Assembly: GCA_963847965.1 (NCBI GenBank)
Contig: CAWKCG010000043.1
Coordinates: 258,191 to 322,190, forward strand
Reading direction: 5' to 3'
Origin: an uncultured Actinomycetes bacterium
Lineage (GTDB): Bacteria; Actinomycetota; Actinomycetes; Streptosporangiales; Streptosporangiaceae
DNA length: 64,000 nucleotides
The notes beneath the pieces were generated by a model, which ran no database searches, was not told the DNA's origin, and saw only the letters and a list, made by a program, of their open reading frames with translations. How positions within the stretch are numbered: position 1 is the first letter of the stretch; the number at the start of each line of letters is the position of its first letter. Positions 6,238 to 31,408 of the stretch are shown here, piece by piece. Both the position numbers and the translations under genes were made by a program.

Positions 6238-6295
6238 CGCGGCCTTCCATCCGCCACTTCTACAGACGCATCGGTCGCCTTGGCGGTGCCGTGCA

Positions 6296-8555: not shown

Positions 8556-8583
8556 GAGCGTTCATGCGCTCGAACAAAACGTC

Positions 8584-8611
8584 CGCCTCTGGATCGAGAA
8601 CTCCAGAGGCG
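8584..8611. terminator. perfect 10-bp stem hairpin between convergent genes (candidate bidirectional terminator)
   Basis: CGCCTCTGGA-tcgagaac-TCCAGAGGCG read directly from the sequence; there is no U-tract. Confidence 0.4.
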
Positions 8612-8708
8612 AGGCAGATCCCTACCTCCACTGAGCAGCCGCTCACAGAGTTGCGGCCCGGGGAAGCCGACGCCGCCAGTGACGATGCCGCGCCTGATAG
8701 GGAAGCGG

Positions 8709-10046: not shown

Positions 10047-10073
10047 GCCCGCCTACCTTTCGACTGCCTTAGG

Positions 10074-10213
10074 CACATTCCCCCAGCCAGAAAGTCGCCG
10101 CTGTCACCCGGCTCAGCCGAACGTTCCCTCCGCTCTACTACAGGGAAACCTTTAGTACATGATATATGACTTTAAGTGACTAGGGCAGCGGGCTCGCAGT
10201 CAACATGTCTACG
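10074..10213 (-). promoter_or_regulatory. conserved promoter/5' leader element, copy A (upstream of ugd)
   Basis: Reading the minus strand: TTGACT (10198-10203), 15 nt, TAGTCA (10177-10182), about 50 nt, palindrome GAACGTTC (10119-10126), 22 nt, then box GACTTTCTGGCTGGGGGAATGTG (10074-10096). The same order and spacing occur in copies B and C. Confidence 0.55.
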
Positions 10214-10388
10214 AATTGCTCTGCGTGCCGGTTGGGCCGTGGGCGTTGCCCGCTTGGGCACTAAACACTGAGATGACCCGTACGTCCCCAATTGCTCCGA
10301 TCATGACGGCTATGCCGCTTAAGCCCTCTAAGTGGAGGTAGTTTGTCCAGCCTTCGGCTGATGGCGCACCAAGGGGCCGTGAACCTCT

Positions 10389-12020: not shown

Positions 12021-12395
12021 TAGGAAACTCGCAGATAGCGAGTTTCGTGCTCTGCGGCCGAGCCCGTGTCTTTATTCATAACGACTCCGTGATTGGTGGC
12101 TGTGTCTGGATCGGTCACCATGCTGGCGTTGAAGTTGATGACCTAGGCGCGACTGGCCCGGCGATCATAGGCGCCAACTCCGCTTCGCTTACTGCAGTCC
12201 TGCCCGGGACGATCCGCCATCAGGCGAACGATGTGGATTTATTGTAATATTGGGGTTAACCGTGCGGTTTCGGCGGTTCCTGGAATGCGGTATTCGCCAA
12301 GCACTTCGCCGCCAAACCGTTTTTGAGGCGCAGGAACGGTGATTCAATGAAACGATAAGATGCCGCAGCCACGATGAAGGTGGCTGCGACTGCGG

Positions 12396-13412
12396 CTATA
12401 TCGACCATGTCGAAGCCGATGTTATGCGCCACAGGCCAGGAGTACTATAAGCGCTGATGTAATGCTTGTAGGCTCCCCAGGCGCTGTGATAGACAATGTA
12501 ATGCCATAGATACAGACCGTAAGAGCGTCGACCGATCCACACCGCCGTCTTCGACGACAAAAGGCTGTCCAGGACCGGCGGCGCCGCGCCGGTCACGAGT
12601 CCCAACAGGATCAGGCCACTGGCCAGGGTGGCGACCGTTATTTCATACGGGACCTGGCCGGACGCGAATACGAAGACGGCCAGCAGAACGATCGTCCCGA
12701 TCCAGGTTGCAGCCCGCAGGGCCATGGCTGCGGGCTGCCGCAGTTGGGTCGATTCTCTCGAGGAGATCCAGAACGCCAGAGCGCAACCAACGATAAGTCC
12801 AGCAGAGTGGGTATCCGTGCCAAAATAGATGCGATCATGGTTGTAGTAACCGGCGGAGGCCATGACCTGACTGTATATCATTTCCGTCAAAGCAATAAGG
12901 GTCAGCGAGAGCGCGATGCGATTCCGGCGGAAGCCGCGCCGGGCGAGCAGGATGAAAAGCACAGGCCACGTGAAATAAAATTGTTCTTCGACGGCGAGAG
13001 ACCAGGTGTGCTGCATCCACCCCAGGTTCCCGGCTCCTATTCCGAATGCAGGGACAAAATTAGCAAGGTAAAAAACAACCCATGGAACCGCGGCAAACGT
13101 TTCTTGGGCGGCGGTGACCCCGACTCGACCCCCGGTCCGTTCCCCAAGCGCTACCAGCCCGACCGCGGCGACAATAAAACAGCAGAGGGCGGGGAATAGT
13201 CGCAGCGCTCTGCGCGCATAAAAGTTGCGGAGGCTGACGCTGCATTCATGGTTGTCCCATTCACCAATGAGTAGTGACGTGATAAGGAAGCCGGAGACCA
13301 CGAAAAATACATCAACCCCCCCGTAGCCACCCGAGTCAAAGTGGGGAAAATTGAGGTGGTAGATCATTACTGCCACTATGGCAACCGCCCGAAGGCCATC
13401 CAATGCTGGCAT
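12396..13412 (-). CDS. acyltransferase family 3 (O-acyltransferase) membrane protein; apparent frameshift near 12440-12460
   Basis: MPALDGLRAVAIVAVMIYH...GVDVFFVVSGFLIT...SYGLYLWH. The expected family C-terminus (AAVAATFIVAAASYRFIESPFLRLK) is encoded in another frame, down to the stop at about 12263. The track start at 13496 lies inside conserved leader copy B, so ATG 13412 is preferred. Confidence 0.7.
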   Translation of the reverse strand: MPALDGLRAVAIVAVMIYHLNFPHFDSGGYGGVDVFFVVSGFLITSLLIGEWDNHECSVSLRNFYARRALRLFPALCCFIVAAVGLVALGERTGGRVGVTAAQETFAAVPWVVFYLANFVPAFGIGAGNLGWMQHTWSLAVEEQFYFTWPVLFILLARRGFRRNRIALSLTLIALTEMIYSQVMASAGYYNHDRIYFGTDTHSAGLIVGCALAFWISSRESTQLRQPAAMALRAATWIGTIVLLAVFVFASGQVPYEITVATLASGLILLGLVTGAAPPVLDSLLSSKTAVWIGRRSYGLYLWHYIVYHSAWGAYKHYISAYSTPGLWRITSASTWSI

Positions 13413-13460
13413 ATACTGCTTCGACCGTGACCGGGCTGAGGACCCACGCTGCTGCGTCGA

Positions 13461-13602
13461 CACGTTCCCCCCAGTCGGAAAGTCTGCCGTTGTCACGATG
13501 CCCAGCCGGACGTTCCGTCTGCTGGATAGCTAGCTACCTTAAGTGTCCAATCTATCACTAACGGTGACTAGCGTAGCGGGCCCACAGTCAGCATGTCTAC
13601 GG
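13461..13602 (-). promoter_or_regulatory. conserved promoter/5' leader element, copy B (upstream of acyltransferase)
   Basis: CTGACT (13586-13591), 15 nt, TAGTCA (13565-13570), 49 nt, GGACGTTC (13508-13515), 23 nt, then GACTTTCCGACTGGGGGGAACGTG (13461-13484). Confidence 0.55.
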
Positions 13603-13865
13603 ATGCTCGACGGCCCTGGTCGGGCCGTTGGACGTGGCCCGTTCCCGCGGGGCTCGCACTGGCCACCTGAGCACGGACGCTCGCGGTTCTTCGCGGCCGG
13701 ATGCCGCCATGACGCGCAGGCACTGCGGAAATGGGGGGATTTAGATGGCTTGCGGAGTGGACTTCAACCTCCGAGGCGCGACCACCGAGCAATACGACCA
13801 GGTGACGCTTGGACTCAACAACGGGCAGCCCATGCACTCCCTGGCAGACTGACCGGGGAGGCGGA

Positions 13866-14223
13866 TGCGCCCATGCGTAGCAGCAGCTCGGCGACGCGGA
13901 TGGCGGGCGAATTGCGCGCGTCGCCGGTGTTCTTCTTGTAGGCGAGCCCCAGCAGCAGTATCCGGGACCCGATCACGAGCCGCCCGCGCTTGTTCAGGGC
14001 CAACAGCACCCGACGGACGACGTAATCCGGCATGTGGCTGTTGACGTCGTTGGCCAGCTCGACGAACCGGAAGCCCCGGCCCAGAGTCCGCTGCACCCGC
14101 CATGACAGGTACGACGGGTCAATAGGCAGGCTGTGGCCCCCACTCCTGGGGCGGGAGTGAACGGCATGAACCCGAACGGCTTGGTCAATGCCGCGTTGAT
14201 CGTCACCCACACGTCGACGCCGA
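13866..14223 (-). pseudogene. internal fragment of a nucleotide-sugar dehydrogenase (partial copy of 15232-15590)
   Basis: Aligned by eye, about 90% nucleotide identity over about 358 bp, including an identical run of roughly 85 nt. It translates as GGHSLPIDPSYLSWRVQRTLGRGFRFVELANDVNSHMPDYVVRR...LGLAYKKNTGDARNSPAIRVAELL. There is no N-terminal Rossmann domain and no C-terminus. Confidence 0.8.
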
Positions 14224-14260
14224 ATTGGCCATACCTCCACGTAGGGCCTCTGGTAACTAT

Positions 14261-14935
14261 CTAATTACGGTGTGTGCTTCGTTCGTAGATGAAGAAGTCT
14301 GCTCGACCAGGTTGAGAACTCGGGCCGCGGACTGTTTCCACGAGCTGCCATTGCGGGAAGTGTTCGTCCACCCATAGCGAAAAATTTCGATGACGCACGT
14401 GCGGGGCATCATCTTTTATCTGATTATTTGTAGAGTAGACCACGACGTATCGCTTACCCGCTGCGAATAGATGGTTCATGTAAGTGTGAAACACTTGATC
14501 TTCTACCAAATGATATATCACATCCAGCGAGAGAGCGGCATCTGCCGTGAACAATCCGGTGCGGTCGACGAAACAGTCGCCTTTATATAGGAAAAAACTC
14601 TTAGTTTGGTCATCGACGAACCGGGCCTTGCATAGTCCGATTGCAGCCGGCGATACGTCGAGTCCAATATAGCAAGGATAATTAGCCAGCGACAACTGGT
14701 GTCCGTCGCCGCATCCGAATTCGATTATGGAGCTTACTCGGTGGTCGCGGACGAATGCGTTCAGGAACTCTGCTTTACCGTGCCCCAGATCGCCATAGGA
14801 TCCCGGACCACTAGTGCGGCCCTTTGCATATTCCGACTCCCAGTAGCTGGCCGAGCTGCGGAAGTGCAACTGCTGACGCAGGATGGAGATCTGTCGCACT
14901 CCAGGAATCGGACGCACAACATCCTTAATGGTCAT
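14261..14935 (-). CDS. class I SAM-dependent methyltransferase
   Basis: Motif I IIEFGCGDGHQL; 224 aa; low GC. It lies between the dehydrogenase gene and its partial copy. Confidence 0.8.
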   Translation of the reverse strand: MTIKDVVRPIPGVRQISILRQQLHFRSSASYWESEYAKGRTSGPGSYGDLGHGKAEFLNAFVRDHRVSSIIEFGCGDGHQLSLANYPCYIGLDVSPAAIGLCKARFVDDQTKSFFLYKGDCFVDRTGLFTADAALSLDVIYHLVEDQVFHTYMNHLFAAGKRYVVVYSTNNQIKDDAPHVRHRNFSLWVDEHFPQWQLVETVRGPSSQPGRADFFIYERSTHRN

Positions 14936-15015
14936 CTATTCTCCCTTATTCTTAATGAGCACTATCCGGCGCTGTTAGATAGCGCAGCTTGGACGATAGA
15001 TCGCGTAGTCGCGCC

Positions 15016-16275
15016 TCACAGGGTCTCGACGTTCGGGCCGGACAGGACCTGCCGACAGTCCAGCACGTAACGCGCGTAGAGGCCTATATCGGTGGCCAGG
15101 AAGGCGTCATGGTCGGTGAGTAGCACCACGATGTCGGCGGCGGCGATCTCCCCGGGCGTAGCGTCAACGCGGGCGACGGCCGGGGAGATGGCGGTCGGCT
15201 CGGTCACCAGCGGGTCGGCTACCCGGACTTCTGCGCCCATGCGCATCAGCAGTTCGGCGACGCGGATGGCGGGCGAATTGCGCGCGTCGCCGGTGTTCTT
15301 CTTGTATGCGAGCCCCAGCAGCAGTATCCGGGACCCGATCATGGGCCGCCCGCGCTTGTTCAATGCCAAGAGCAGCCGGCGAACGACGTAATCCGGCATG
15401 TGGCTGTTGACGTCGTTGGCCAGCTCGACGAACCGGAAGCCCCGGCCCAGAGTCCGCTGCACCCGCCAGGACAGGTACGACGGGTCAATGGGCAGGCTGT
15501 GGCCGCCTACTCCCGGGCCGGGAGTGAACGGCATGAACCCGAACGGCTTGGTGGATGCGGCGTTGATCGCCTCCCACACGTCGACGCCGAGCTCGTGCCC
15601 GAACATCGCCAGCTCGTTCGCCAGCGCGATATTCACGTGCCGGAAGGTGTTCTCGATCAGCTTGGCCAGTTCCGCCACGCACGGCGAGGAGACCGGTACC
15701 GTCCGGTCCACAATTCCCTGGTAAAAGCTCTCCACCGCGGCCAGCGACTCATCATCAATGCCCGAAACGATCTTCGGCGTCGCGGCCAGGGTCCAGGATC
15801 CGTTTGCTGGGTCGATGCGCTCGGGGCTGTAGCCCAGGCGGAAATCGGTGCCCGCCGCCAGCCCGGACCCTTCTTCAAGCCAGGTGAGCACCTGCGCCTG
15901 GGTGGTTCCGGGGAAGGACGTGGACTCCAAGATCACCGTCGAGCCCGGGCGCAGGTAACGGGACAGCGTTCGGCTGGCCGCCTCGATGTAGGCCAGGTCG
16001 GGCAGGCCGTCCCGAAGCGGCGTGGGGACCGTGATCACGGCGACGTCGAAGCCGGTGCAGACGTCGGCATCCGCCGACAGCCAGAACCTTCCGGAGTTCA
16101 GCGCCGCGGCAAGCTCACAGGAGGACACGTCCTCGACGTACGATTCCCCGGCTTCCAGACGCTTTACCCGGACCGCGTCGGTGTCGTACCCGATAACCTC
16201 GTGCCCCACTGCGACGGCCCGGATCGCCAGCGGCAGACCCACGTATCCCAAGCCCGCCACCACTACCGCGGCCAC
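15016..16275 (-). CDS. nucleotide-sugar dehydrogenase (UDP-GlcNAc/UDP-ManNAc 6-dehydrogenase-like, WbpA/WecC type)
   Basis: VVAGLGYVGLPLA N-terminus; GGHSLPIDP catalytic region; LGLAYKKNTGDARNSPA C-terminal domain; GTG start; 419 aa. Confidence 0.88.
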   Translation of the reverse strand: MAAVVVAGLGYVGLPLAIRAVAVGHEVIGYDTDAVRVKRLEAGESYVEDVSSCELAAALNSGRFWLSADADVCTGFDVAVITVPTPLRDGLPDLAYIEAASRTLSRYLRPGSTVILESTSFPGTTQAQVLTWLEEGSGLAAGTDFRLGYSPERIDPANGSWTLAATPKIVSGIDDESLAAVESFYQGIVDRTVPVSSPCVAELAKLIENTFRHVNIALANELAMFGHELGVDVWEAINAASTKPFGFMPFTPGPGVGGHSLPIDPSYLSWRVQRTLGRGFRFVELANDVNSHMPDYVVRRLLLALNKRGRPMIGSRILLLGLAYKKNTGDARNSPAIRVAELLMRMGAEVRVADPLVTEPTAISPAVARVDATPGEIAAADIVVLLTDHDAFLATDIGLYARYVLDCRQVLSGPNVETL

Positions 16276-17652: not shown

Positions 17653-17897
17653 CCCGGCTTTTCCGCTTCGCCACAGTCGGGTGGGTGAACGGCCACCGCG
17701 CCGGCGGGCTGGTGACACGGTGCGGTAGTGACGAATCGCCAGCGAACGAGTGCGCCGCGTGACATTATTGCCCTCGCAGTCACTCATTGTAGTTCCCTGA
17801 CGCCGCTAGCCTGCTGCCGTCTTGAGAAGATAATCAGACGTACGCCCAGCTTGTGGCCTTATCTCCTGCTAAGAGCAGGGAGGAAGGCAATACCTTC

Positions 17898-19628
17898 ATG
17901 ACCCAGGCCATGACCCGGCGTAACCTGCTCCGCCTCGGCCTTGGCGCAGGCGGTGCCGTCGCCCTGCTGCCCGTGGGCGGCCGGGCGCTCGCCGGTCCCG
18001 CAGCCCGCGCCGCGGGTGCCACGCCTCAGCCTTGGCCCGGCGAAGGCGGCCAGCTCGCCTACTTCGGGCGGATGTTCCCGAAGCTGCAGCCGTTCCGGCC
18101 GGACGCGGACGAGAACGTCACGCTGGCCAACCTGGCCACGCTGGCCGACGCGATGCTCGAGCCGGGCGGCGGGTTCGACACCACCCACGGCGCCGCCTAC
18201 ACCTACCTCGGCCAGTTCATCGACCACGACATAACCCTGGACCTGCAGCCCCAGCCCACGGCCAATTTCAGCTTCTCCGGACCGCGCGCCGACGACCCGC
18301 TGCTCGATCCGGCTGGCGACATCGTCTACGACTATGAGTCCAAGCGGCTGGACCTGTCGCAGATCTACGGTGGCGGCCCGAGCGTCTCCCCGCAGCTGTA
18401 CGAGCCGGACGGCCTGCACTTCCGGGTGCCGCTGAACGTCAACGGCGTGGTGGATCTCCCCCGCAATCCGGACGGGAGCGCAATCGTGGTGGAGAAGCGG
18501 GACGACGAGAACCAGATCATCTCCCAGCTGCACGTCGCCTTCCTGCTATTTCACAACGCGGTCGCCGACGCCCTCGGCAGCAACTTCCTGACCACCCAGC
18601 AGACGGTCATCAGCTACTACCAGCATGTCGTGCTGCATGACTTCATGCCGCTGGTGTTCGGCCAGAACGTGATCAACCAGATGCTGGCCGGGAAGCACCG
18701 CGTCTACGATCCCGGCGCTGTCGTGAGCCGGCCGGTCATGCCGGTCGAGTTCAGCGCCGCTGCCTACCGGTTCGGGCACAGCCTGACCCGCAACGCTTAC
18801 TCCTTGAACCCGGTGATCTCTCCCAACAACAAGAACGCCCGCAACAACCTGTTCTTGGGCGTGGGCGGGGCCACCGGCCCGGTCGGCGGGACGGGCGTGC
18901 CCATGACCCCAGCCGGCGACCTTCACGGCGGCTACCCGCTGACGTTGGACCACCAGATTGACTGGAGAAACTTCCACGAGAACCTGTTCGACTCCTCGGT
19001 GCCCGGCGCTTCCCTGCAGGTCCTCAAGCAGCCCGGCGCCGACGGGCTGCACATGATCTCACAGTCTCTGTTCGGCCAGCCGCCTGGCGTCCCCGCCGTC
19101 GGCACCGGGGCGGGCCTGCCGATCGGCGGGCCGTCCGGCGCCCAGCCGTCCGGGTCCAACTCGATCCAGTACCGGGATTTCGTACGCGGATTCTTCTACC
19201 AGCTCCCATCCGGCCAGGAGGTGGCGGCCGCGTACGGGCTCACCCCGATCGACCCGACGGTGGCGATCCCCGCCTCGATCCCCGGCTTCTCCACGGGCAC
19301 CCCGCTGTTCTTCTACGTCCTGTACGAGGCGTACCTGAACAACCAGGGCTCCGCTGCCACCAACGACTTCGACAACACCGGCACGGCCAGCGACTTTCAG
19401 CAGGCCCAACTCGGCCCGGTGGGTGCGCGGATCTGCGCGGACGTGCTGCTGCGGCTGATCCAACTGGACCCGTACGGCATCCTGCAGCAGCCGTTCACCC
19501 CGATGCCCCCGATCGCGCCAGAAGCCGGCCAGTTCGGCATCGCCGACCTGCTCCGGTTCGCCGGAGTAGTCCCGTCCGGCAGTTCGCCAGCTCCAGCGCT
19601 GAAACAGAATGCCGGGCCGCAACCGTGA
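17898..19628 (+). CDS. Tat-exported haem peroxidase of the peroxidase-cyclooxygenase (animal haem peroxidase) superfamily
   Basis: Distal-His block YLGQFIDHDITL; RDDENQIISQLHVAFLLFHN block; proximal-His block AAYRFGHSL. Twin-arginine leader MTQAMTRRNLLRLGLGAGGAVAL. GGGAGGAAGG lies upstream of ATG 17898. Confidence 0.8.
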   Translation: MTQAMTRRNLLRLGLGAGGAVALLPVGGRALAGPAARAAGATPQPWPGEGGQLAYFGRMFPKLQPFRPDADENVTLANLATLADAMLEPGGGFDTTHGAAYTYLGQFIDHDITLDLQPQPTANFSFSGPRADDPLLDPAGDIVYDYESKRLDLSQIYGGGPSVSPQLYEPDGLHFRVPLNVNGVVDLPRNPDGSAIVVEKRDDENQIISQLHVAFLLFHNAVADALGSNFLTTQQTVISYYQHVVLHDFMPLVFGQNVINQMLAGKHRVYDPGAVVSRPVMPVEFSAAAYRFGHSLTRNAYSLNPVISPNNKNARNNLFLGVGGATGPVGGTGVPMTPAGDLHGGYPLTLDHQIDWRNFHENLFDSSVPGASLQVLKQPGADGLHMISQSLFGQPPGVPAVGTGAGLPIGGPSGAQPSGSNSIQYRDFVRGFFYQLPSGQEVAAAYGLTPIDPTVAIPASIPGFSTGTPLFFYVLYEAYLNNQGSAATNDFDNTGTASDFQQAQLGPVGARICADVLLRLIQLDPYGILQQPFTPMPPIAPEAGQFGIADLLRFAGVVPSGSSPAPALKQNAGPQP

Positions 19629-19661
19629 ACCACTCGCGAACGGCCACGCGTCGTAGTTCAT

Positions 19662-19738
19662 CGGATGCAACCGTCCATATCGGTTGATAGCCGCTTGGCT
19701 CCTGTGCTCTGCTTTCCCAGACAGTCGCGAATCCCGCG
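19662..19738 (+). repeat. upstream repeat R1 (leader/promoter-like), 5' of the sortase region
   Basis: GGATGCAACCGTCCATATCGGTTGATAGCCGCTTGGCTCCTGTGCTCTGCTTTCCCAGACAGTCGCG matches the 3' half of R3 (23424-23489). Confidence 0.7.
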
Positions 19739-19857
19739 GCGACGGGAGCAACATGGGCGAGCAAGGCGGCCGTGGCATGCCGTCCGGGAGTGTCCCTCCC
19801 GGCGGCCAGGCCGGGCCCGCGCCCATCCCGATGACATCGGCATGCGCCGCGGGAAAT

Positions 19858-20087
19858 CCATCGTGGGCCCAGGTCCTGGGCACCACCATCCGCCTGTGGC
19901 TGGCCCGGCGAATGCCGCGCATCAGCATCGAATGGCCAGACATGTCGTCGGGCCAGGCGGCGGTCGGCCACTCGGCGCCTGTGCCCGTCCTGAGAACGCC
20001 GCGTGGATCCATCCTGGGGACAGGTCCTTCTCACGACCATCCGCCTATGGCTGGCCCGCCGAATGCCGCGCATCAGCATCGAATGGC
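19858..20087 (+). repeat. 151-bp-period tandem duplication of the 5' coding end of the sortase gene
   Basis: 19858-19936 and 20009-20087 align at about 88% identity (ccatcgtgggcccaggtcctgggcaccaccatccgcctgtggctggcccggcgaatgccgcgcatcagcatcgaatggc vs ccatcctggggacaggtccttctcacgaccatccgcctatggctggcccgccgaatgccgcgcatcagcatcgaatggc). The offset of 151 is not a multiple of 3. Confidence 0.85.
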
Positions 20088-20785
20088 AGCACCCTGGCCG
20101 CTTCTCCCGCGGTGGCCTTCCGCGGTCCGCCCGGGGTTCGGCTCAGCGGGGTTCGTTCGGGCGGCTGCTGGCCGCTTCGGCGCTCGGCCTCGGGCTGCTG
20201 GCCGTAGGGGCCGGGACGGCCGGGATGGTCGTGGCCAGCAGTTCGGCCGGACCAGCGGTGCGCTTGCCCGCCAGGCCGACGCCGGTCCCTGCTCCATCGG
20301 GCCGGACGGTGGCGCCGGTCTGGCTGACCACCGTGCAGCGGACCGCGCAGCCGGATTTGCTGACCATTCCGGCCATCGGGGTGCGGACCAAGCTGGTGGA
20401 CCTCGGTCTCAACCGCAACGGCACGCTCCAGGTACCAGCCAGCACCGCGGTGGCCGGCTGGTATAGCGGCAGCCCGCCGCCCGGCGCGGTCGGGGCCGCG
20501 GTCATCGCCGGCCACGTCGACTCCCGCGCCGGGCTGGGTGTCTTCTTCTGGCTGCGGACCCTCCGTCCCGGCGACCGCGTGTACGTCGGCCGCTCGGACG
20601 GGACCACGGTCGTCTTCACGGTGACGAGCGTCCAGATGTACGCGAAGGACCAGTTTCCGACGGCCGCGGTGTACGGTGCCGTTCCGGACGCGGAACTGCG
20701 GCTGATCACGTGCGGCGGAACCTTCGACCGATCCCTCGGCAGTTACCTCAGCAACGTCGTGGTATTCGCGCGACTGACCGGCTGA
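20003..20785 (+). CDS. class F sortase
   Basis: N-terminal TM helix (LLAASALGLGLLAVGAG); IAGHVD His block; LRLITCGG (TLxTC-type Cys motif); 260 aa from GTG 20003. No obvious SD precedes this start. Confidence 0.75.
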   Translation: MDPSWGQVLLTTIRLWLARRMPRISIEWQHPGRFSRGGLPRSARGSAQRGSFGRLLAASALGLGLLAVGAGTAGMVVASSSAGPAVRLPARPTPVPAPSGRTVAPVWLTTVQRTAQPDLLTIPAIGVRTKLVDLGLNRNGTLQVPASTAVAGWYSGSPPPGAVGAAVIAGHVDSRAGLGVFFWLRTLRPGDRVYVGRSDGTTVVFTVTSVQMYAKDQFPTAAVYGAVPDAELRLITCGGTFDRSLGSYLSNVVVFARLTG

Positions 20786-20835
20786 TGCCGTCCTACGCGA
20801 GCCGATCGGCAGGGCCTCCGGCTCGCCGGTAAACC

Positions 20836-20902
20836 GTGCGCCCATGTACCGATAAGCGACCAGACCACTGCGCACCGCAGTATCTCGGATGCAATCTTCC
20901 AT
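20836..20902 (+). repeat. upstream repeat R2 (copy of the 5' half of R3) stranded between convergent genes
   Basis: GTGCGCCCATGTACCGATAAGCGACCAGACCACTGCGCACCGCAGTATCTCGGATGCAATCTTCCATA is near-identical to 23372-23438. Confidence 0.75.
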
Positions 20903-20997
20903 AAAAGCGCGGGTCGCAGCCGAGCCACGCGAACTCCACCCCTCCAGACTATCGACCGGGCGACGCAACCATCGCCGAACTGGCCGTCATGGTCTGC

Positions 20998-21888
20998 TCA
21001 CTGGCCGGCTGCGCTGGCCGTCCGGCGTGACCGGCGCAGGCTGGCGAACCCGGCCATGGTCAGCAGCGCGCCGACGGTGATGGTCAGCAGCCACGGCGCG
21101 GGATTCCCGGGCAGGCGGGGCGCGGTCCCGCCGAAGCCGGTGTTGGCTCCGCCCTGCGGCATGATCTGGCTGCCCACCGCGTCGGTGAGGGTATCTACCT
21201 TCAGCCCCGACGAGTCGTCAAGCACCACGATGGTGTGAATCGTGTTAGCGGCGAGGTCGACCGACATGGCGGCGTGCTCACCCGGCGCCGTGAACTGCAC
21301 GGTCCGGGTGCCTGGTGAGACGGCCACGTACGAGGTGGCCGAGCCGAAGGGAAGTTGCTGCGCCAGGACGTCCGGTCCGTAGCTGACCGTCACCCGAGGC
21401 TCCTTGAGCGAGGCCTGGAACACCCGGACAAGCACCTGTCCGGCCGGTGCGGTCATCTGGTCTTCGAGCACCTCCACCCGCAGGCCTGGATCGGGGCCGA
21501 GCGCAGCCACGGTGTAGGCCTTCCCCGCGCTCACCGTGAAACTCGTGCTCAGCGCGGGAGCGCTTGACGCCGGCGCGCCGAAGCCCCGCATCGCCACCGT
21601 GTACTGGCCGGGGCTGACCGCCATGTAGGCGGAGACGTCGCCGTAGCTGACGTCTCTCAGTACGGTCGCGTGGCCGGGGTTGCTGAATGTATACAGGTAC
21701 ATGTCCATCGCCGGCGCCTTAGGGGACAGATGGGCAATCCTGACCCAGCCATCCTGCGAGGCCGCGGGTGCGGCGGAAGCCGTGGAAGCGGCGTATGCCG
21801 CGGGTGATGTGGCCGCGACCAGGGCAGCGGTGCCCGCCAGCAGCGTCGCGATCGTAGCCAGCCGGGCACCAAGCCAGAGCAGCCTCAT
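20998..21888 (-). CDS. DUF4397-domain surface protein with signal peptide and C-terminal sorting-signal-like tail
   Basis: Signal peptide MRLLWLGARLATIATLLAGTAALVAATSPAAYA. Repeated GWVR..HLSP / Y.V..G.YTV blocks. C-terminus GGANTGFGGTAPR, then a hydrophobic helix, then RRSRR. Confidence 0.8.
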   Translation of the reverse strand: MRLLWLGARLATIATLLAGTAALVAATSPAAYAASTASAAPAASQDGWVRIAHLSPKAPAMDMYLYTFSNPGHATVLRDVSYGDVSAYMAVSPGQYTVAMRGFGAPASSAPALSTSFTVSAGKAYTVAALGPDPGLRVEVLEDQMTAPAGQVLVRVFQASLKEPRVTVSYGPDVLAQQLPFGSATSYVAVSPGTRTVQFTAPGEHAAMSVDLAANTIHTIVVLDDSSGLKVDTLTDAVGSQIMPQGGANTGFGGTAPRLPGNPAPWLLTITVGALLTMAGFASLRRSRRTASAAGQ

Positions 21889-21901
21889 GGTTCCTTACCT
21901 C

Positions 21902-23227
21902 TCAGTCGATTAGTGTCTTGCGGGCACGTATTGGGCCGGCGATCGGGAAGGTGCGCGCCGGGACGCGCTGTTGGTCAACGGCCAGGACCGCCGTCAGCAG
22001 CCCCAGCGGGCTCGGTGCCGCGAACTCGATGGTCAGCGCGGCCTGGTCGGCCGCCGGGTGGATGATCACGGCGCGAGCGGGCTGGTACGGAGGGTCCTGC
22101 GCGTTCACCAAGGCGAGGGCTGCCGCAAGCTCGGCCGTTCCGTCAGCGCTGCCGCCGCTCGTCACGGTCACTTCCCGGTACAGCACCTGAACGCCGGGAG
22201 AGGCGTCGCCGAACGCCGTCACCCGGAAGGAGTACTGGGACGCCAGGGCAGCGAGCGTCGCCAGCAGCCGGGAATCCACCGCACCCGCCCGCAGCTGCGC
22301 GGCATCCTGCCTGGTGAACTGGATACGCCAGTTTCGGAGCAGCTGAGCGCCCGCGCTCTCGCGGGCGGCTAGATCGGCCCGCAGCGCGGATCTGTAGGCG
22401 GCCGCTCCGCCGGGCTCGGTCGCGCGGACGTCCACCCGGGTCCCGCCCGAACCGAAGCTCGCGATAACCGCAGGCGCGTACTCATCGGCGAGCTGGCTGC
22501 TCATCGGCGATGAGGTTACGACCACGCTGGCGCCGAGCGGATTGTCCGACCCGGGCCGCATCGGCAGCACGCGACTCCCGATGACGCCCTGCGCCTGCAG
22601 CGCGGCGCACATGGCAGGGTCACACGCGATGATCGCCCCGCTGCTCACCTGGCTGACGATCCAGGCAACGGCCTGTTCCGCGGCCGCCGCAGCTAGGGAA
22701 GATGTACCGGGAGTGCCCGCCCGGTCGCCGTTGCCTACGGAGGAATTGCCCGCGGAGGGCATTCGCCCGGCCGATGGCGCGGTCCGGCTAAGCTCGGCGA
22801 ACCCGAGGGCGGCCGCCGCGATGACCGCCAGAGCCAGGACGAGGACGGCCAGCTGCCAGCGCCGGGCGGCCACGTGACCCAGATGGCCAAGACGCCAACG
22901 GAACCAGCTCCGGTGTTCCGGTCCGGGTCCGCGTTCCCGTCCGGAACCGAGGGGCCTCACCCGCCTCAACACCCAGAGCTTGATGGTGGTGGCCAGGATC
23001 CGGCTCCACGACGGCTGCGTCGGGGCACCCGGGGCAGGAGCCGCCGCATGTACCGAAGGCACCCCCAGGGCTAGCGCGGGTTCCGCCGTGTCACTGGACG
23101 GCGATCTTGTTCCCGCAGCGTGTCCCCGCGAGCCCGGAGGAGGCGACGTCGCGCGCTCCGGCACGGTCGGCGTCCCGGAGCTAAGGACTCTTCCTGGCAG
23201 GACCGAGTGGCGGTCGTCATCGCCCAC
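21902..23227 (-). CDS. uncharacterised single-pass membrane protein (paralogue of 23508..24602)
   Basis: About 55% identity by eye to the 23508 product (IIACDPAMCAALQA, FGDASPG, IEFAAPSPLGLL). N-terminal PSWSRILATTIKLWVLRR motif followed by a TM helix. The track ORF up to 24079 is a shadow extension. GTG 23227 is preferred (GGAGAGG 8 nt upstream); GTG 23062 is an alternative. Confidence 0.6.
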   Translation of the reverse strand: MGDDDRHSVLPGRVLSSGTPTVPERATSPPPGSRGHAAGTRSPSSDTAEPALALGVPSVHAAAPAPGAPTQPSWSRILATTIKLWVLRRVRPLGSGRERGPGPEHRSWFRWRLGHLGHVAARRWQLAVLVLALAVIAAAALGFAELSRTAPSAGRMPSAGNSSVGNGDRAGTPGTSSLAAAAAEQAVAWIVSQVSSGAIIACDPAMCAALQAQGVIGSRVLPMRPGSDNPLGASVVVTSSPMSSQLADEYAPAVIASFGSGGTRVDVRATEPGGAAAYRSALRADLAARESAGAQLLRNWRIQFTRQDAAQLRAGAVDSRLLATLAALASQYSFRVTAFGDASPGVQVLYREVTVTSGGSADGTAELAAALALVNAQDPPYQPARAVIIHPAADQAALTIEFAAPSPLGLLTAVLAVDQQRVPARTFPIAGPIRARKTLID

Positions 23228-23371
23228 ATCCGCCACCTCTCCGCCACCCCCGCGGCCCTGCAGGTCATGTGCGACAGGACAGCACAAGAGCACGCCGACG
23301 GCAACCAATATCACCGATTGGTTATAAAGGCGTGCGACTCGACCAGATCTTCGTGTGCCTGCCGGTGGACG

Positions 23372-23489
23372 GTGCGCCCATGTACCGATAAGCGACCAGA
23401 CCACTGCGCACCGCAGTATCTGGGATGCAATCTTCCATATCGGTTGATATGGGCTAAGCTCCTGTGCTCTTCTGTCCCAGACGGTCACG
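23372..23489 (+). repeat. upstream repeat R3 (full-length copy; R2 half plus R1 half)
   Basis: Contains small hairpins ACTGCG-cac-CGCAGT and CCATATC-ggtt-GATATGG. It ends 19 nt before GTG 23508. A weaker inverted copy (R4) lies at 23269-23319, facing the 21902 gene. Confidence 0.7.
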
Positions 23490-23507
23490 CTTGGTCGAGG
23501 GGCAGGG

Positions 23508-24602
23508 GTGAGATCAACCAGAGTCGCAGAACCCGCGCCGGCCACTGTCGAGCAAGGAATGCGCGCTCTCGCGGAGCCATCGTGGGGCCGGGTCATGGCG
23601 ACGACGGTCAGTCTCTGGCTGTCGCGGCGGTGGCCGCGTGTCGGCCTCGGACGGCCGCGTGGCGTCAGCCGGCCCTCCCGGCACCTTTCCCGCCGAACCG
23701 CCCGTGGCCTGCGACTTGCCGTCCTTCTCTTGGCCCTGATCGCCGTCGCCGTGACCGCCCTCCGGCTCACCGGCACCTCGGCCTCGGCCGCCCGGTCATC
23801 CTCGGCGGGCCGTCCCCATCCGGCCCGCGGCCGCCAGGCCGCGTCCGTCGGTGCCGCCGCGACGGTCCGGGCCCAGGCCGCTGCCTGGATTGCGGGCCAG
23901 GTAGGCAGCGACGAGATCATCGCGTGCGATCCCGCCATGTGCGCCGCGCTGCAGGCGCGAGGCGTGGCCGCGGGCCGCCTGCTCCCGGTGGGGCCGACCA
24001 CGACGAGCTTGTCGAACGCTGACGTTATCGCGGCTTCCCCGGCGATCCGCAGCCAGTTCGGACGCCAGCTCAGCGGCAACTACGCGCCGATGCTGCTCGC
24101 GAGCTTCGGGTCCGGCGCCAGCCTGATCGACGTTCGCGCCGCCTTCCCGGGCGGGGTAGCGGCCTACAACTCAGCACTGCGGGCCGACTACGCCTCGCGT
24201 AAGAGCGCCGGCACGCAGCTGCTCCGCAGCCGACGCGTCATGGTGAGCCCTCAGGCCGCCGGGCAGCTCGAGGCCGGTGCCGTAGACACTCGCCTGCTGG
24301 TCATGCTCGCGGCGCTGGCGTCGCTGCAACCGCTGCAGGTGGTCGCCTTCGGCGACGCTTCCCCCGGCGCGGAGGTACCTGCCGCGGACCTGCCGCTCAG
24401 GGAGGTCACCCTCACCAGCGCGGACGGCCGGGGTGGAGCGGCTGGCCTGGCGCCCGTTCTGGCCATGGTGCGCGCGCAGCGCGCGCCATACCAGCCCGCT
24501 TTCGCCTCGATCGTCGACTCGGCGGCCGGACAGGCCGAACTGCTCATCGAGTTCGCCGCGCCGAGCCCTCTCGGGCTACTCACAGGTGGGAACCAACCAT
24601 GA
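23508..24602 (+). CDS. uncharacterised single-pass membrane protein (paralogue of 21902..23227)
   Basis: GAGGGG SD 5 nt before the GTG. N-terminal EPSWGRVMATTVSLWLSRR motif; TM helix LRLAVLLLALIAVAVTAL; extracytoplasmic domain with a CDPAMC pair. ATGA overlap with the downstream DUF4397 gene. Confidence 0.65.
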   Translation: MRSTRVAEPAPATVEQGMRALAEPSWGRVMATTVSLWLSRRWPRVGLGRPRGVSRPSRHLSRRTARGLRLAVLLLALIAVAVTALRLTGTSASAARSSSAGRPHPARGRQAASVGAAATVRAQAAAWIAGQVGSDEIIACDPAMCAALQARGVAAGRLLPVGPTTTSLSNADVIAASPAIRSQFGRQLSGNYAPMLLASFGSGASLIDVRAAFPGGVAAYNSALRADYASRKSAGTQLLRSRRVMVSPQAAGQLEAGAVDTRLLVMLAALASLQPLQVVAFGDASPGAEVPAADLPLREVTLTSADGRGGAAGLAPVLAMVRAQRAPYQPAFASIVDSAAGQAELLIEFAAPSPLGLLTGGNQP

Positions 24603-25504
24603 GGCTACGCAGGTGTTTCGCCCGGCTCGCCGCGATAACTACGCTGCTCGGCAGCGCCATTGCCTGCCTCGCGGCCTCACCGCCTGCGGCATCCGCCGCC
24701 GCGACGGGTGCGGCTGGCGCGGCTGGCGCCGCGGGCACAGCCGCGACGAATGACGGGTGGGTGCGGTGCGCCAACCTGTCCCCAGGCACGCCGGCCGTTG
24801 ACATCTACCTCTACGCGTTCGGCAACCCCGGGCATCCGACCATCCTGAGGCACGCTGACTACGGCAACGTGTCCAGCTACATGGCGGTGAGCGCAGGCGA
24901 GTACACGGTCGCGATGCGCCCCGTCGGCGCGACGGCGTCAAGCCCGCCCGTAGTTTCGACCAACTTCATGGTGAGCGCCGGGTCGGCCTACACCGTGGCC
25001 AGCATCGGATCGTCCGCGGCGCGCCGGGCACTGGTCCTGACCGACCAGATGGCCGCGCCGAAAGGCCAAGCGCTGGTCCGGGTTATCCAGGCGTCGGTAA
25101 AGCAGCCGCAGGTCACCGTCGACGATGGGCAGGACGTCCTCGCCCAGCAGTTGACCTTCGGCTCGGCGACCTCGTACATGGCCGTGCAGCCCGGCACGCA
25201 GACCGTGCAGTTCATCGCGTCGGGTGAGAAGACCTCCATGTCCGTCACCCTGACCGGCGGCTCGGTCCACACGATTGTCGTCCTGGACGGCTCCTCGGGG
25301 CTGAAGGTCGACATCCTGACCGACGCGGCAGGCAGCCAGGTCGCGCCGACCGGGGGCGCCGCCACGGGCCTGGGCGGGACAGCGCCGCGCGACACCGACC
25401 TGATCCCGTGGGCGGGCACGCTGGCGGCCGGGTTGCTGCTTGTTACCGCCGGTGTCATCGGGCTGCGCAGGTCTCGCCGAACCGCAGCCGTAGGGCACGA
25501 GTAA
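24599..25504 (+). CDS. DUF4397-domain surface protein with signal peptide and C-terminal sorting-signal-like tail
   Basis: About 60% identity by eye to the 20998 product. C-terminus GGAATGLGGTAPR, then a hydrophobic helix, then RRSRR. Confidence 0.8.
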   Translation: MRLRRCFARLAAITTLLGSAIACLAASPPAASAAATGAAGAAGAAGTAATNDGWVRCANLSPGTPAVDIYLYAFGNPGHPTILRHADYGNVSSYMAVSAGEYTVAMRPVGATASSPPVVSTNFMVSAGSAYTVASIGSSAARRALVLTDQMAAPKGQALVRVIQASVKQPQVTVDDGQDVLAQQLTFGSATSYMAVQPGTQTVQFIASGEKTSMSVTLTGGSVHTIVVLDGSSGLKVDILTDAAGSQVAPTGGAATGLGGTAPRDTDLIPWAGTLAAGLLLVTAGVIGLRRSRRTAAVGHE

Positions 25505-26232: not shown

Positions 26233-26910
26233 TTACACGGCCCACTCAAGGCGACGGCGCAGAGGCGCACCAGGCAGTTGCGGGCTGGGATCACGGCCGC
26301 GCGTGGCTTCGGCGGTGTACGGATCACCAGGATCGATCGGCGGGAACGGCCCCGCGGGGCCCGCCGACCGCGGGCGCTGGGATGCCTGACCATCCGGGCC
26401 CGATCCCGGCCGCGTCGGGAACCGCCCGTGGGAGCGCTTGCGGTGGCGAGACTCGATCATCAGGACCGCGCCTACGACCGAGCCTACGAATGCAGAGGCC
26501 GCGGCCGCGAGCATCACGATGAATACCGCCATGACCACGCCGGCCACGGGCTGGCCGAGCGCCACCGCCGTAACGCTGACCCCGAAAATCATTGCCGCGA
26601 TCGCGCCGACGCCGGACTTGACCGGCCTGCTCGCTGCCCAGCTCACCGGCCGCGGCGCCGGGGCGGGTGGCAGCGGCTTGGCTAGGTTCGAGCCGGCCGG
26701 GATGTCGGCGGTGACCTCAGCCAGTTCGTCATAGGTCCGCGCCGCGAGCGTTCGGCCCACCCGCGCGTCCAGTTCGTCCTTGGTCAGGCGGCCCTGCACG
26801 AAGGCGGTCTTGAGGGTGTCGATGACCAGGTTGCGGTCGGCGTGCGACGCCCGCAGGGAGCCACGGCGTGCCTCAGGTCCCACCATCTCGCCTTCCGCGC
26901 CCGACATCAT
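26233..26910 (-). CDS. DUF1707 (SHOCT-like) domain membrane protein
   Basis: LRASHADRNLVIDTLKTAFVQGRLTKDELDARVGRTLAARTYDELAEVTADIP followed by two hydrophobic helices. Confidence 0.75.
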   Translation of the reverse strand: MMSGAEGEMVGPEARRGSLRASHADRNLVIDTLKTAFVQGRLTKDELDARVGRTLAARTYDELAEVTADIPAGSNLAKPLPPAPAPRPVSWAASRPVKSGVGAIAAMIFGVSVTAVALGQPVAGVVMAVFIVMLAAAASAFVGSVVGAVLMIESRHRKRSHGRFPTRPGSGPDGQASQRPRSAGPAGPFPPIDPGDPYTAEATRGRDPSPQLPGAPLRRRLEWAV

Positions 26911-28141: not shown

Positions 28142-28214
28142 AGCCCCGTCACGGATTCGAACCGTGCACCTTTCCCTTACGAGGGGAATGCTCTGCCGAA
28201 TGAGCTAACGGGGC
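28142..28214 (-). tRNA. tRNA-Thr (anticodon CGT)
   Basis: Folded by hand. Acceptor GCCCCGT/ACGGGGC; D arm GCTC/GAGC; anticodon stem TTCCC/GGGAA with loop CTCGTAA; T arm CACGG-TTCGAAT-CCGTG; 73 nt; CCA not encoded. Confidence 0.9.
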
Positions 28215-28748: not shown

Positions 28749-28966
28749 ATAGCGACAACGGGGGGCTGGGGGCACGAGGCTACAGACACGGGGCTGACCA
28801 GAAAGTTACCGAACGTAACCGGGCGCGCACCCGCGTGCGGACGCCGACGAAGGTGAGGGGGCCCCGGCGGACGGCGACCCAAGCCGTTGGTGACAATTAG
28901 TGATCACATCTTAACAATGGGTATAACAGCGGGGACTAGGTGTGATTGTCGGGGGAAGAGGTAGCG

Positions 28967-31408
28967 ATGGCGCTTGAAACCCGGGATGTGTCGACGGGGC
29001 TGCGGGCCGAGTTTCCGGACGCGCTGCGGAGCGGGCAGCTGGTGGCCTATTTTCAGCCCGAGTTCGATCTGTCGTCCGGCCAGGTAGTGGCGGCGGAAGC
29101 GCTGGCCCGATGGGAGCACCCCGAACTCGGCACCGTGGGACCCGACGTGTTCGTCCCCATCGCCGAGCAACTGCGACTGACCAGCGAGCTTACCCGCCTG
29201 ATGCTCGGGCTGTCGCTCGCGCAGCACCGGGCCTGGGTCGCCGGCGGGTGGAACATCCCTGTCTCGGTCAACGTCGGGCCTGGTTGCGTGAGCGATCCCG
29301 GATTCCCCGCCGTCATCGGGGGGGTGCTGCGGAGCGAGCGGGTACCCGGCCGCATGCTCATCCTCGAGGTGAGTGAGCAGACCGGGACCTCCGTCGTGAG
29401 CGCGAGCTTCTTCGCGCAGCTCACCGAGCTCGGCGTCCGCGTCTCGCTGGACGACTTCGGCACGGGCTTCGCCTCGCTGGAGAGCCTCGGCGGCTGGCCG
29501 ATCGATGAGCTCAAGCTCGACATGTCGCTGGTGCGGCCGATAGTGAGCAGCTCGAGCTTCCGGGCGATCGTCGGCCACACCATCGATCTCGCCCATCAGC
29601 TCGGAGTCAAGGTCGTGGCCGAGGGAGTCGAGTCCGAGGGCGTCTGGTCCGAACTGCAGGCCCTTGGCTGTGACGTCGCGCAGGGCTTCCTGCTCGGGCG
29701 GCCGATGCCAGCCGACGTGTTCGCGGAATGGCTGCGTCACAGGGAACGGCTCGCGCACCGACGGCGCGTGCCAGGCCAGCCCAACCTACGGTCGGCTACC
29801 GGCGCGGCGGTCGCCGAACGCGCCGACGCGCAGCCGGTCGGCGCCTACCGGCGACTGACCCGCGCGAGCCGCAGCGTCGCGGACCGGGTGGGCGGTCCCA
29901 CGCTTGCCGCCGCCGCCACGATGCTCGTCGGCTACGGACTGTGGCAGGTGTTCCGCTGGGGCGGTCGTCAGCATCAGGCACTGATCGGCGATCTCGCCTT
30001 CTTCCCGGTGAACGGGGCGGCGGCCCTGTGGGCCTGGCGGGTATCCCTGCGCAGGGCTTTCGGGGCGCCGACCTGCCGGGCGTGGCGCCTGCTGTCCGTC
30101 GCCCTCTGGCTGTTCCTACTCGGTGACGGGCTGCAGCTCATCTACGAGTGCGTGCTACACAAGAGGGCCTACCCGACCTGGGCCGACGCCGCGTACCTGA
30201 GCTTCTACGTCGTCGCCCTATTCGGCATCCTCTCCTTCCCGGCCCGGCGCCGGAACCGGCGAGAGCGGTTCCGTGCCCTGCTCGACATGGGGACCGTGTT
30301 CACCGGCGGAGTCACGCTCATCTGGTACGTGGCGCTCGGGCCGGCGGTGGCCTCCGCGACCGGCGGCTTCGACCTGGCCAACCTGGTGACCTTCGCCTAC
30401 CCGGTCGGTGACCTGCTGCTGTTGTTCGGGGTGCTGTCGCTGCTGTGGCGCGGAGTCCCGCGCCTGAGCGTGGGGTCGCTGCGGATCCTCGCGTGCGGCC
30501 TGGTGGTGTTCATCGCGGCCGACGTCTCCTACGACTACATCACGGTGAACTCGGGCTACCTCGGCGGCGACCCGGTCGACACGCTGTGGATCGTGGCGCT
30601 GATCATCCTGTTCGTGGCGGCCGGATACCAGCTGCGCGTCAAGCCGGCCGGGGAGTTCGCACTGCCAGCGAGGGCTCCGGCGACGCGTCCCAGCATCCTG
30701 CCTTTCCTCGCGGTCGCGGCCAGCTACCTCCTGCTCACCATCGTGGGCCTGAAGAATGTCAGCTTCAACCCGCTGGGAGGCGTCCTGATCGGCGCGGTGG
30801 TGCTGACGATCCTGGTCAGCGTGCGGCAGTTCGCCGCCTTGCGCGATAACAACCGGCTCGCGGTCCGGTACCAGGAACTCGCTTCGATCGACGGGATGAC
30901 TGGCCTGTACAACAGGCGCTACTTCATGGACGTGGCCGAGGGCGCCTTCGCGCATGCGCAGTGGTTCAGCCAGCCTCTCGTCGCGCTGATGATCGACGTA
31001 GACCACTTCAAGGAGATCAACGACGTATACGGCCATGCCGTGGGCGACAGGGTGCTCGCTGACCTGGCCCAGTCCTGCCGTGAGCACGTCCGGCCTGACG
31101 ATATCGCAGGGCGTTACGGCGGCGACGAGTTCATCATCATGATCGCGGGGACCACCGGCCTCCGGGCGACCCAGATCGCGGCCAGGCTGACCGCGGCGCA
31201 CGTGACCGCCAGCGACGGGACGCCGGTGCCCTTCACGGTCAGCATCGGTATCGCGGAATCCGCCGCATGCCGTGACCTACCGAGCCAGTTGGCCCGCGCT
31301 GACCTGGCCATGTACGAGGCGAAGCGGGCGGGCGGAGGCTGCTGGCGCGTCTTCGAGGGCACCGAACCAGGGCCGGATCCTATTCTCCCGGCCCCTCGGT
31401 CACACTGA
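28967..31408 (+). CDS. c-di-GMP protein with the order EAL, polytopic membrane region, GGDEF
   Basis: EAL-domain residues AAEALARWE, VSVNV, LILEVSE, DDFGTGFASL, ELKLD, AEGVES and QGFLLGRP. About 8-10 helices follow. GGDEF-domain residues DVDHFKEINDVYGH and RPDDIAGRYGGDEF (I-site RxxD plus GGDEF). ATG 28967 follows GGAAGAGG. Confidence 0.85.
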   Translation: MALETRDVSTGLRAEFPDALRSGQLVAYFQPEFDLSSGQVVAAEALARWEHPELGTVGPDVFVPIAEQLRLTSELTRLMLGLSLAQHRAWVAGGWNIPVSVNVGPGCVSDPGFPAVIGGVLRSERVPGRMLILEVSEQTGTSVVSASFFAQLTELGVRVSLDDFGTGFASLESLGGWPIDELKLDMSLVRPIVSSSSFRAIVGHTIDLAHQLGVKVVAEGVESEGVWSELQALGCDVAQGFLLGRPMPADVFAEWLRHRERLAHRRRVPGQPNLRSATGAAVAERADAQPVGAYRRLTRASRSVADRVGGPTLAAAATMLVGYGLWQVFRWGGRQHQALIGDLAFFPVNGAAALWAWRVSLRRAFGAPTCRAWRLLSVALWLFLLGDGLQLIYECVLHKRAYPTWADAAYLSFYVVALFGILSFPARRRNRRERFRALLDMGTVFTGGVTLIWYVALGPAVASATGGFDLANLVTFAYPVGDLLLLFGVLSLLWRGVPRLSVGSLRILACGLVVFIAADVSYDYITVNSGYLGGDPVDTLWIVALIILFVAAGYQLRVKPAGEFALPARAPATRPSILPFLAVAASYLLLTIVGLKNVSFNPLGGVLIGAVVLTILVSVRQFAALRDNNRLAVRYQELASIDGMTGLYNRRYFMDVAEGAFAHAQWFSQPLVALMIDVDHFKEINDVYGHAVGDRVLADLAQSCREHVRPDDIAGRYGGDEFIIMIAGTTGLRATQIAARLTAAHVTASDGTPVPFTVSIGIAESAACRDLPSQLARADLAMYEAKRAGGGCWRVFEGTEPGPDPILPAPRSH

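Follow-up and report, generated by a model that had tools for sequence, protein, structure and literature searches.

The window analysed here, a stretch of 64,000 nucleotides (nt) from contig CAWKCG010000043.1 of an uncultured actinomycete of the Streptosporangiaceae, contains a class F sortase gene, srtF, beside two divergently transcribed two-gene modules, in each of which the gene for a membrane protein is followed by the gene for a secreted DUF4397 protein. We name the membrane protein family Mem, with MemA encoded by the minus-strand module and MemB by the plus-strand module, and refer to the DUF4397 proteins as the cargoes DUF4397-A and DUF4397-B. Together the genes are best explained as a dedicated cell-envelope system of a soil actinomycete lineage. 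All five open reading frames (ORFs) were found where an earlier note, made from the DNA sequence without database searches, had placed them, and the tight coupling it described holds in both modules, with a 13-nt gap in A (21889-21901) and an ATGA overlap in B (24599-24602). For comparison we sampled 31 genome loci, 10 further loci reached via exact-protein look-up and 80 metagenome loci (cited below by L numbers), annotated by phmmer with the five proteins of the window as queries. The features of the locus are as follows, the PSW motif being a conserved cytoplasmic sequence and the outer domain the part of Mem beyond its transmembrane segment, both described below.

19640-19730, plus strand: copy of the upstream element before srtF, a repeat in the window that is kept in other genomes
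19753-20002, plus strand: probable true 5' part of srtF, from nucleotide alignment with L001 and L002 and the motif census
20003-20785, plus strand: class F sortase ORF (SrtF), from NF033748, Pfam Sortase and a transmembrane scan
20825-20903, plus strand: 79-nt remnant of sequence from 5' of memB, matching 23361-23439 at 95% identity
20998-21888, minus strand: DUF4397-A cargo, with signal peptide, two DUF4397 repeats, GANTG (21136-21150), C-terminal transmembrane helix and RRSRR
21902-23227, minus strand: MemA, with PSW motif (22961-23014), transmembrane segment (residues 126-144) and outer domain
23265-23327, minus strand: diverged upstream element before memA, recognised by aligning it to the other window copies and to the sequence 5' of the memA-type genes in L008 and L015
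23400-23490, plus strand: copy of the upstream element before memB, a repeat in the window that is kept in other genomes
23508-24602, plus strand: MemB, with PSW motif (23577-23630), transmembrane segment (23706-23762) and outer domain (about 23820-24587) containing C-D-P-x-M-C
24599-25504, plus strand: DUF4397-B cargo, with signal peptide, two DUF4397 repeats, GAATG (25355-25369), transmembrane helix (25409-25465) and RRSRR

Comparison at both the protein and the DNA level indicates that the two modules are real paralogues, their similarity being far beyond chance. MemA and MemB are 51% identical (E 1e-75), DUF4397-A and DUF4397-B 60% (E 2e-111), and the DNA arms of the inverted modules are 72-77% complementary across 140-348 nt. 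The paralogue identity of 55-60% given previously is right for the cargo pair and slightly too high for the Mem pair. Read from stop to stop the memA ORF extends to 24079, and we place its start at GTG 23227 because the GTGGGCGAT context there aligns with the starts in L008, L015 and L001; the GTG start of memB is kept in relatives.

The genes srtF, memB and that of DUF4397-B, all on one strand, form the usual sortase-linked arrangement of the MemB module. Judging from the loci compared, this appears to be the ancestral unit, and the sortase appears to belong ancestrally to the MemB module. The memA-DUF4397A module of the window lies between srtF and memB; that of L001 is on the opposite side of srtF, and in both L001 and L002 the sequence of the 20825-20903 remnant sits directly between srtF and memB. 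The remnant is probably the scar of the rearrangement that put the memA module in its present place.

Gene linkage and the cargo tail

The triad of sortase, Mem and DUF4397 genes recurs beyond the source genome, in three gene orders and down to about 40-50% identity. Counted over 118 loci other than the window, among MemB-type genes with at least 400 nt of 3' sequence a DUF4397 gene follows in 68 of 70 cases, and among those with at least 2300 nt of 5' sequence srtF lies directly upstream on the same strand in 34 of 40, and downstream in 2 more. MemA-type genes have DUF4397 on their 3' side in 20 of 27 cases, and a sortase lies near only 4 of 20, always on the opposite strand. The constant pairing of membrane protein and cargo that the earlier note supposed can thus be kept as a near-constant pairing of Mem with DUF4397, but does not extend to the full triad. 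In distant members (about 43-51% identity) the order is srtF-mem-DUF4397 in L036 and mem-DUF4397-srtF in L037 and L038. Mem and DUF4397 are concordant in their A or B type in every module of the 31 genome loci that has both; in three modules of the loci added later (L037, L038 and L114) the cargo next to a MemB-type gene scores as A-type. Beyond close relatives, the sampled loci share no further conserved neighbour.

Both cargoes are DUF4397 proteins (Pfam PF14344), with scores of 134.9 and 118.6 bits against a cutoff of 30.6 and two matching stretches per protein, and both carry the signal peptide and the sorting-signal-like tail that had been ascribed to them. The C terminus is in three parts, the consensus P-x-G-G-A-(A/N)-T-G-(F/L)-G-G-(T/M)-A-P being followed, after about 8-12 residues, by a hydrophobic helix (a segment of 19 residues) and then by RRSRR. 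The canonical pentapeptides LPXTG and LAXTG are absent from the cargo tails, and GAATG or GANTG shares TG alone with them. The database model GVDTG_CTERM (NCBIfam NF058571) likewise comprises a C-terminal G-x-x-T-G, a helix and a basic tail, and aligns to both tails over 42-44 residues, with 26.2 bits for DUF4397-A and 18.9 for DUF4397-B. As these scores are below the cutoff of 29 the tails are relatives of this model and not members, with their own consensus, GGAATG(L/F)GG(T/M)AP. Literature searches for GVDTG returned chance peptide matches only.

The Thr of this motif follows the sortase. Within the top 120 homologues of DUF4397-B, 84 fit the tail pattern used and 83 of these keep the Thr. 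Sortase-linked tails have it in 54 of 56 cases, whereas 7 of the 8 unlinked tails, those whose modules have flanks long enough to rule out a sortase next to them, have Ala instead (Fisher p = 4.5e-7, shared ancestry ignored). Such a pattern is expected if the Thr is retained for sortase cleavage.

Outside the tail the cargoes bear a remote resemblance to AlgF (Pfam PF11182), the periplasmic mediator of alginate O-acetylation. The profile matches DUF4397-B with E 9e-6 (25.7 bits) and DUF4397-A with E 0.0066 (16.4 bits), both below the cutoff of 34.4, and most DUF4397 homologues carry a precomputed AlgF match. No sequence relatives of DUF4397-B were found in the PDB.

SrtF, Mem and the motif they share

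That the sortase is of class F, as proposed in the earlier note, is borne out by the NCBIfam model NF033748, which matches residues 113-259 at 186.4 bits against a cutoff of 166; the Pfam Sortase family matches with E 1.3e-22. The catalytic His lies in AGHVDS and the Cys in LITCGG, and at the usual position of the Arg there is an Asn (YLSNVVV), a replacement frequent in actinobacterial class F enzymes (PMC6998099). The transmembrane segment comprises residues 60-78 of the 20003 ORF. A search of the PDB found no sequence relatives of SrtF.

The cytoplasmic N-terminal motif previously seen to be conserved in Mem is PSWGxVLATTxxLWxSRR, and the same motif, which had escaped notice there, is N-terminal in SrtF. 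It is present in both proteins in the window and in L001-L004, L006, L007, L009, L014, L020, L021, L023 and L036, and in no other ORF of the window and the 31 genome loci, the roughly 0.5 Mb over which the census was made. Sortases encoded third in the operon (L037 and L038) lack it. From the spacing of its Trp, Leu and Arg residues we infer an amphipathic helix lying next to the membrane. A second cytoplasmic block, (L)PEDWWDPAWQ, is encoded 5' of the PSW motif in the sortases of L004, L007, L014, L020, L023 and L036, and is absent from the window sortase.

The srtF ORF reported at 20003 exists, and the second of two PSW copies (20009-20062) lies within it, but alignment with relatives indicates that the gene probably starts further upstream, at ATG 19753. 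The sortase genes of L001, L002 and L003 have a conserved ATGGGCGAG start behind a GGGAG Shine-Dalgarno sequence and encode two tandem PSW copies. The window has the same ATGGGCGAG start at 19753 and a first PSW copy at 19858-19911 that is out of frame with the sortase ORF, the tandem copies being separated by a 151-nt repeat unit. L001 reads through both copies in one frame, which in the window is broken by a 1-nt insertion near 19995-20003. L002 has a different srtF frameshift, and several loci from metagenome-assembled genomes (MAGs) labelled MFD have split ORFs, so the frameshift in the window may be an assembly error. It could reflect either nanopore assembly or a real 5' truncation.

SrtF and Mem have more in common than the motif. 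An upstream element of about 90 nt, with the core GGATGCAAyCgTCCATATCGGTTGATA...GCTCnTGTGCTCTGCTGTCCCAGAC, precedes srtF, memB and, in diverged form, memA. It has 2 matches in the window against 0 expected, is kept 5' of srtF and memB in L001, L002, L003, L006 and L023, and is found in at least 7 other genomes. An RNA leader or riboswitch was considered and rejected, as Rfam gave no match at the gathering threshold and nothing relevant at E <= 1, and RNAalifold, run on 14 copies, predicted 3 pairs at -0.19 kcal/mol. This makes a DNA-level promoter or operator more likely, and a search of the element for the sigma-70 consensus gave 0 matches. With the element in common, srtF, memA and memB are probably switched on together.

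The absence of a nameable family for the membrane protein, remarked on in the earlier note, is upheld. MemA and MemB have no Pfam or NCBIfam match, and profile searches and structure prediction for the 23508 product matched no characterised family. Across 95 diverse members no Pfam match recurs even at E <= 1, and neither PADLOC, nor the PDB sequences, nor a viral structure library gave a match. Clustered at 50% identity, the family has 1761 representatives with E <= 1e-3, of which 738 reach E <= 1e-30; its relatives are labelled mostly as Streptosporangiaceae or Trebonia-type soil MAGs, and all members are named "hypothetical protein" at their source.

Mem proteins are 350-440 residues long, with an outer domain of about 250 residues. 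The transmembrane scan finds one strong segment in each, in agreement with the single-pass topology suggested before, and as positive charge is greater on the N-terminal side of this segment the N terminus should be inside and the C terminus outside, as in the sortase. The invariant sequence blocks quoted previously are all in both paralogues; across 95-132 members the only invariant or near-invariant positions are W127, C140-D-P-x-M-C145, F200-G-x-G, G257-x-V-D260-x-R262 and P352-x-P-x-G-L. The same 95-132 sequences reveal neither a conserved His nor an obvious catalytic set in the outer domain. Modelled with confidence by AlphaFold from 132 sequences (pLDDT 90.2, pTM 0.82), this domain consists, in order, of a long helix, an α/β unit with the near-invariant C-D-P-x-M-C, a second long helix and a second α/β unit. 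In the PDB, Foldseek matches the model repeatedly to one domain only, the N-terminal domain of Hedgehog (E 0.03-0.1, target TM-score about 0.4, root mean square deviation 5.5-6.5 Å, about 120-130 aligned columns, probability 0.7-0.9). We treat this kinship as not established, because the match is weak and Mem conserves no His and none of the zinc ligands of the Hedgehog signalling domain; no bacterial member of the Hedgehog fold was among the 50 matches listed. Internal duplication of the outer domain into two βαββαβ halves was also considered, and is unsupported at the sequence level (hhalign probability 0.7%).

The outer domain is also found at the C terminus of proteins of 680-990 residues (P0181, P0182, P0200, P0260, P0150, P0155, P0215 and P0228), in which a transmembrane segment is combined with cytoplasmic STAND NTPase (AAA_16/NACHT) modules, TPR modules or both. 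Such a long form would amount to a STAND protein whose C-terminal domain is extracellular. At the one long-form locus examined (L035, 3095-6058) there is no sortase or DUF4397 gene nearby. A role in anti-phage defence, prompted by the STAND fusions, was rejected, PADLOC giving only generic TPR. In a further subfamily, without DUF4397 (L012 9011-10471, L013 1765-3756, L016 9206-11089 and L026 10066-12384), the next gene encodes an Acyl_transf_3 protein with an SGNH-like C-terminal region (Pfam-confirmed in L012, L013 and L016). These loci adjoin dnaB, and that of L013 is also near rplI and ssb.

Candidate anchoring of DUF4397 by SrtF and the alternatives

The reading we favour, to which we give roughly even credence, is that SrtF anchors DUF4397 to the cell wall and that Mem is a dedicated partner of the cargo placed together with both. 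The two-repeat, remotely AlgF-like DUF4397 protein would be exported via its signal peptide and held in the membrane by the C-terminal helix and RRSRR tail. SrtF would then cut after the Thr of GGA(A/N)TG and join the protein to the cell wall; candidate recognition peptides of this tail type are GGAATGLGGTAP and PTGGAATGLGGTAP. Mem, with its outer domain outside the membrane, would form a complex with DUF4397 as its obligate partner, the two being made together from coupled genes and diverging together. The PSW helix on both Mem and SrtF presumably brings sortase, partner and substrate to one membrane site. Where modules lack a sortase, these being mostly of MemA type and usually having Ala for Thr, the cargo would stay anchored in the membrane, still paired with Mem. 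A more far-reaching version, which we think unlikely, would make of Mem a new family of extracytoplasmic domains, perhaps of novel fold, that serves as substrate-specific co-factor of the class F sortase, with the PSW motif as an assembly tag joining sortase and co-factor in the membrane and the same domain acting elsewhere as the external sensor of transmembrane STAND NTPases.

Several observations weigh against anchoring by SrtF. GAATG is no known sortase motif, and the only characterised class F sortase, that of P. acnes, uses LPXTG (PMC8225981). Since some Mem-DUF4397 pairs have no sortase, the core job of Mem cannot be sortase-specific. Seven of the 27 MemA-type genes have no DUF4397 gene, those of L012, L013, L016 and L026 being followed by the acyltransferase-3 gene instead, and the outer domain is also fused to STAND NTPase-TPR modules, with no cargo nearby in L035. 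The correlation of Thr with the sortase has exceptions in both directions, the linked L063 and L070 carrying Ala and the unlinked L011 keeping Thr, and its statistic ignores kinship, many of the unlinked loci being close relatives. Moreover, a quadruple srtF deletion in Actinoplanes (2026 study) gave no phenotype (PMC13251363).

A first alternative is that Mem and DUF4397 form a sortase-independent complex working on a glycopolymer of the wall, for instance as an adaptor of the AlgF kind in O-acylation or export, with the sortase a late add-on in one branch that alters tethering only. This is the strongest of the alternatives, although we still consider it doubtful. The Mem-DUF4397 pair is commoner than the triad, MemA-type modules are mostly sortase-free, and one Mem subfamily lies directly 5' of the Acyl_transf_3 gene with its SGNH-like region. 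The AlgF matches of DUF4397-B and of most of its homologues are in keeping with it; AlgF mediates protein-protein contacts in alginate acetylation (PMC10641220). However, those matches are remote and fall under the Pfam cutoff, the acyltransferase neighbourhood occupies one syntenic position by dnaB and so may be a single event, and no polysaccharide genes are conserved beside the modules. The setting also differs from that of AlgF in having no alginate genes nearby, a C-terminal sorting signal on the cargo and Gram-positive actinomycetes as hosts. A glycopolymer role overlaps with anchoring by SrtF instead of excluding it.

The STAND fusions would fit a role for Mem as a transmembrane sensor or transducer, in which the outer domain binds a wall-derived or external ligand, the output is the PSW helix or the STAND NTPase, and DUF4397 is a co-sensor or presents the ligand. 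In several members the outer domain does stand behind a transmembrane segment fused to cytoplasmic AAA_16/NACHT and TPR modules, the L035 gene is free of cargo and sortase, and the outer domain lacks both a conserved His and an obvious catalytic set. Yet in the short forms the cytoplasmic part is only about 20-70 residues long and contains no output domain that can be recognised, none of the neighbouring genes is consistently a regulator, and signalling leaves unexplained why the PSW motif is common to the sortase. We rate a sensor as improbable.

Still less credible is an enzymatic Mem, such as a Cys-dependent maturase, peptidase or transferase that processes DUF4397 or the wall. Across 95 members C140 is near-invariant and C145 invariant, at a strand-to-helix junction, and D260, R262 and Y220 are conserved; the Hedgehog N-terminal domain, to which the outer domain has a weak fold likeness, shares the zinc DD-peptidase fold. 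But the Foldseek values given above are weak, no bacterial peptidase is among the 50 matches listed, there is no conserved His for binding zinc, and the two Cys could equally well form a structural disulfide of an exported domain. Equally far from likely is that the sortase is adjacent by accident, the DUF4397 tail being a membrane anchor only and SrtF serving other substrates: GAATG is non-canonical, the tails score under the GVDTG_CTERM cutoff and unlinked modules work with Ala for Thr, but srtF lies beside the module in 36 of the 40 informative MemB loci and does so in three gene orders, the Thr is near-invariant only where a sortase is linked, and SrtF has both the motif and the upstream element in common with Mem.

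If SrtF does anchor DUF4397, the locus would resemble the dedicated sortase-substrate clusters, in which class B sortase is paired with IsdC, class C with pilins and class E with LAXTG chaplins. There too a membrane Cys transpeptidase is encoded beside a secreted protein, the C terminus of which has a motif ending in TG, a hydrophobic helix and a basic tail. The present locus differs in its motif, GA(A/N)TG followed by (F/L)GGTAP in place of LPXTG or LAXTG, in the class F of its sortase, and in a third conserved gene, of an undescribed family, that is always present. For the last there is a partial parallel in SafA of Actinomyces and Corynebacterium, a membrane protein that is linked to a sortase, binds it and keeps it stable (PMC9282373). 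Like Mem it is encoded in genetic linkage with an actinobacterial sortase; it acts by direct contact with that sortase near the membrane, and in this it is a precedent for the favoured reading. By description SafA is small, with an FPW motif on the outer face, whereas Mem has 350-440 residues, a large outer domain and a cytoplasmic PSW motif, and Mem tracks the cargo more tightly than it does the sortase.

Class F sortases are the most numerous in many actinomycetes. No function or substrate has been reported for them there (PMC13251363, PMC6998099, PMC8225981), and none of the papers searched links DUF4397 with a sortase. Sortase-substrate clusters as a kind are already known, as are DUF4397, the class F sortase and the GVDTG-type sorting domain as database models. 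What is new is the third component, with its unnamed family; a GAATG-type signal associated with a class F sortase; a motif and an element common to sortase and partner; and the natural contrast of Thr and Ala. The locus therefore provides a candidate substrate (DUF4397) and a candidate motif (GAAT|G) for a class F sortase, together with a natural negative control in the Thr-to-Ala paralogues. As a partner family Mem itself is unstudied, comprises about 1800 sequence clusters and has no convincing structural relative, and the common motif and upstream element suggest that the sortase and its accessory protein are co-localised and co-regulated. The value of this reading is that of a sharp hypothesis and not of a result, because the lineage is mostly uncultured and the case is built from sequence.

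Neighbouring genes in the window

Between an epimerase gene and srtF, at 17853-19628 on the plus strand, lies a gene whose 591-residue product combines a twin-arginine-like signal (RRNLLRLGLGAGG) with an animal haem peroxidase domain (E 9e-15); L002, a close relative, has no such gene at that position. On the other side of the modules, at 26233-26910 on the minus strand, a DUF1707 (SHOCT-like) membrane protein gene is kept in L001 and L002. The haem peroxidase, the epimerase, a lipoprotein and the DUF1707 protein were each considered as parts of the module and rejected, being common only to these closest relatives. Rfam identifies tRNA genes at 28142-28214 (minus strand), about 2.6 kb 3' of the module, and at 40437-40521 (plus strand), and a large membrane protein encoded at 28946-31408 (plus strand) has EAL-like and GGDEF-like motifs visible in its sequence. 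The G+C content is 56-62% at positions 1-2000 and 6001-16000, against about 68-74% over most of the window, and these low-G+C stretches may be a foreign or otherwise atypical segment.

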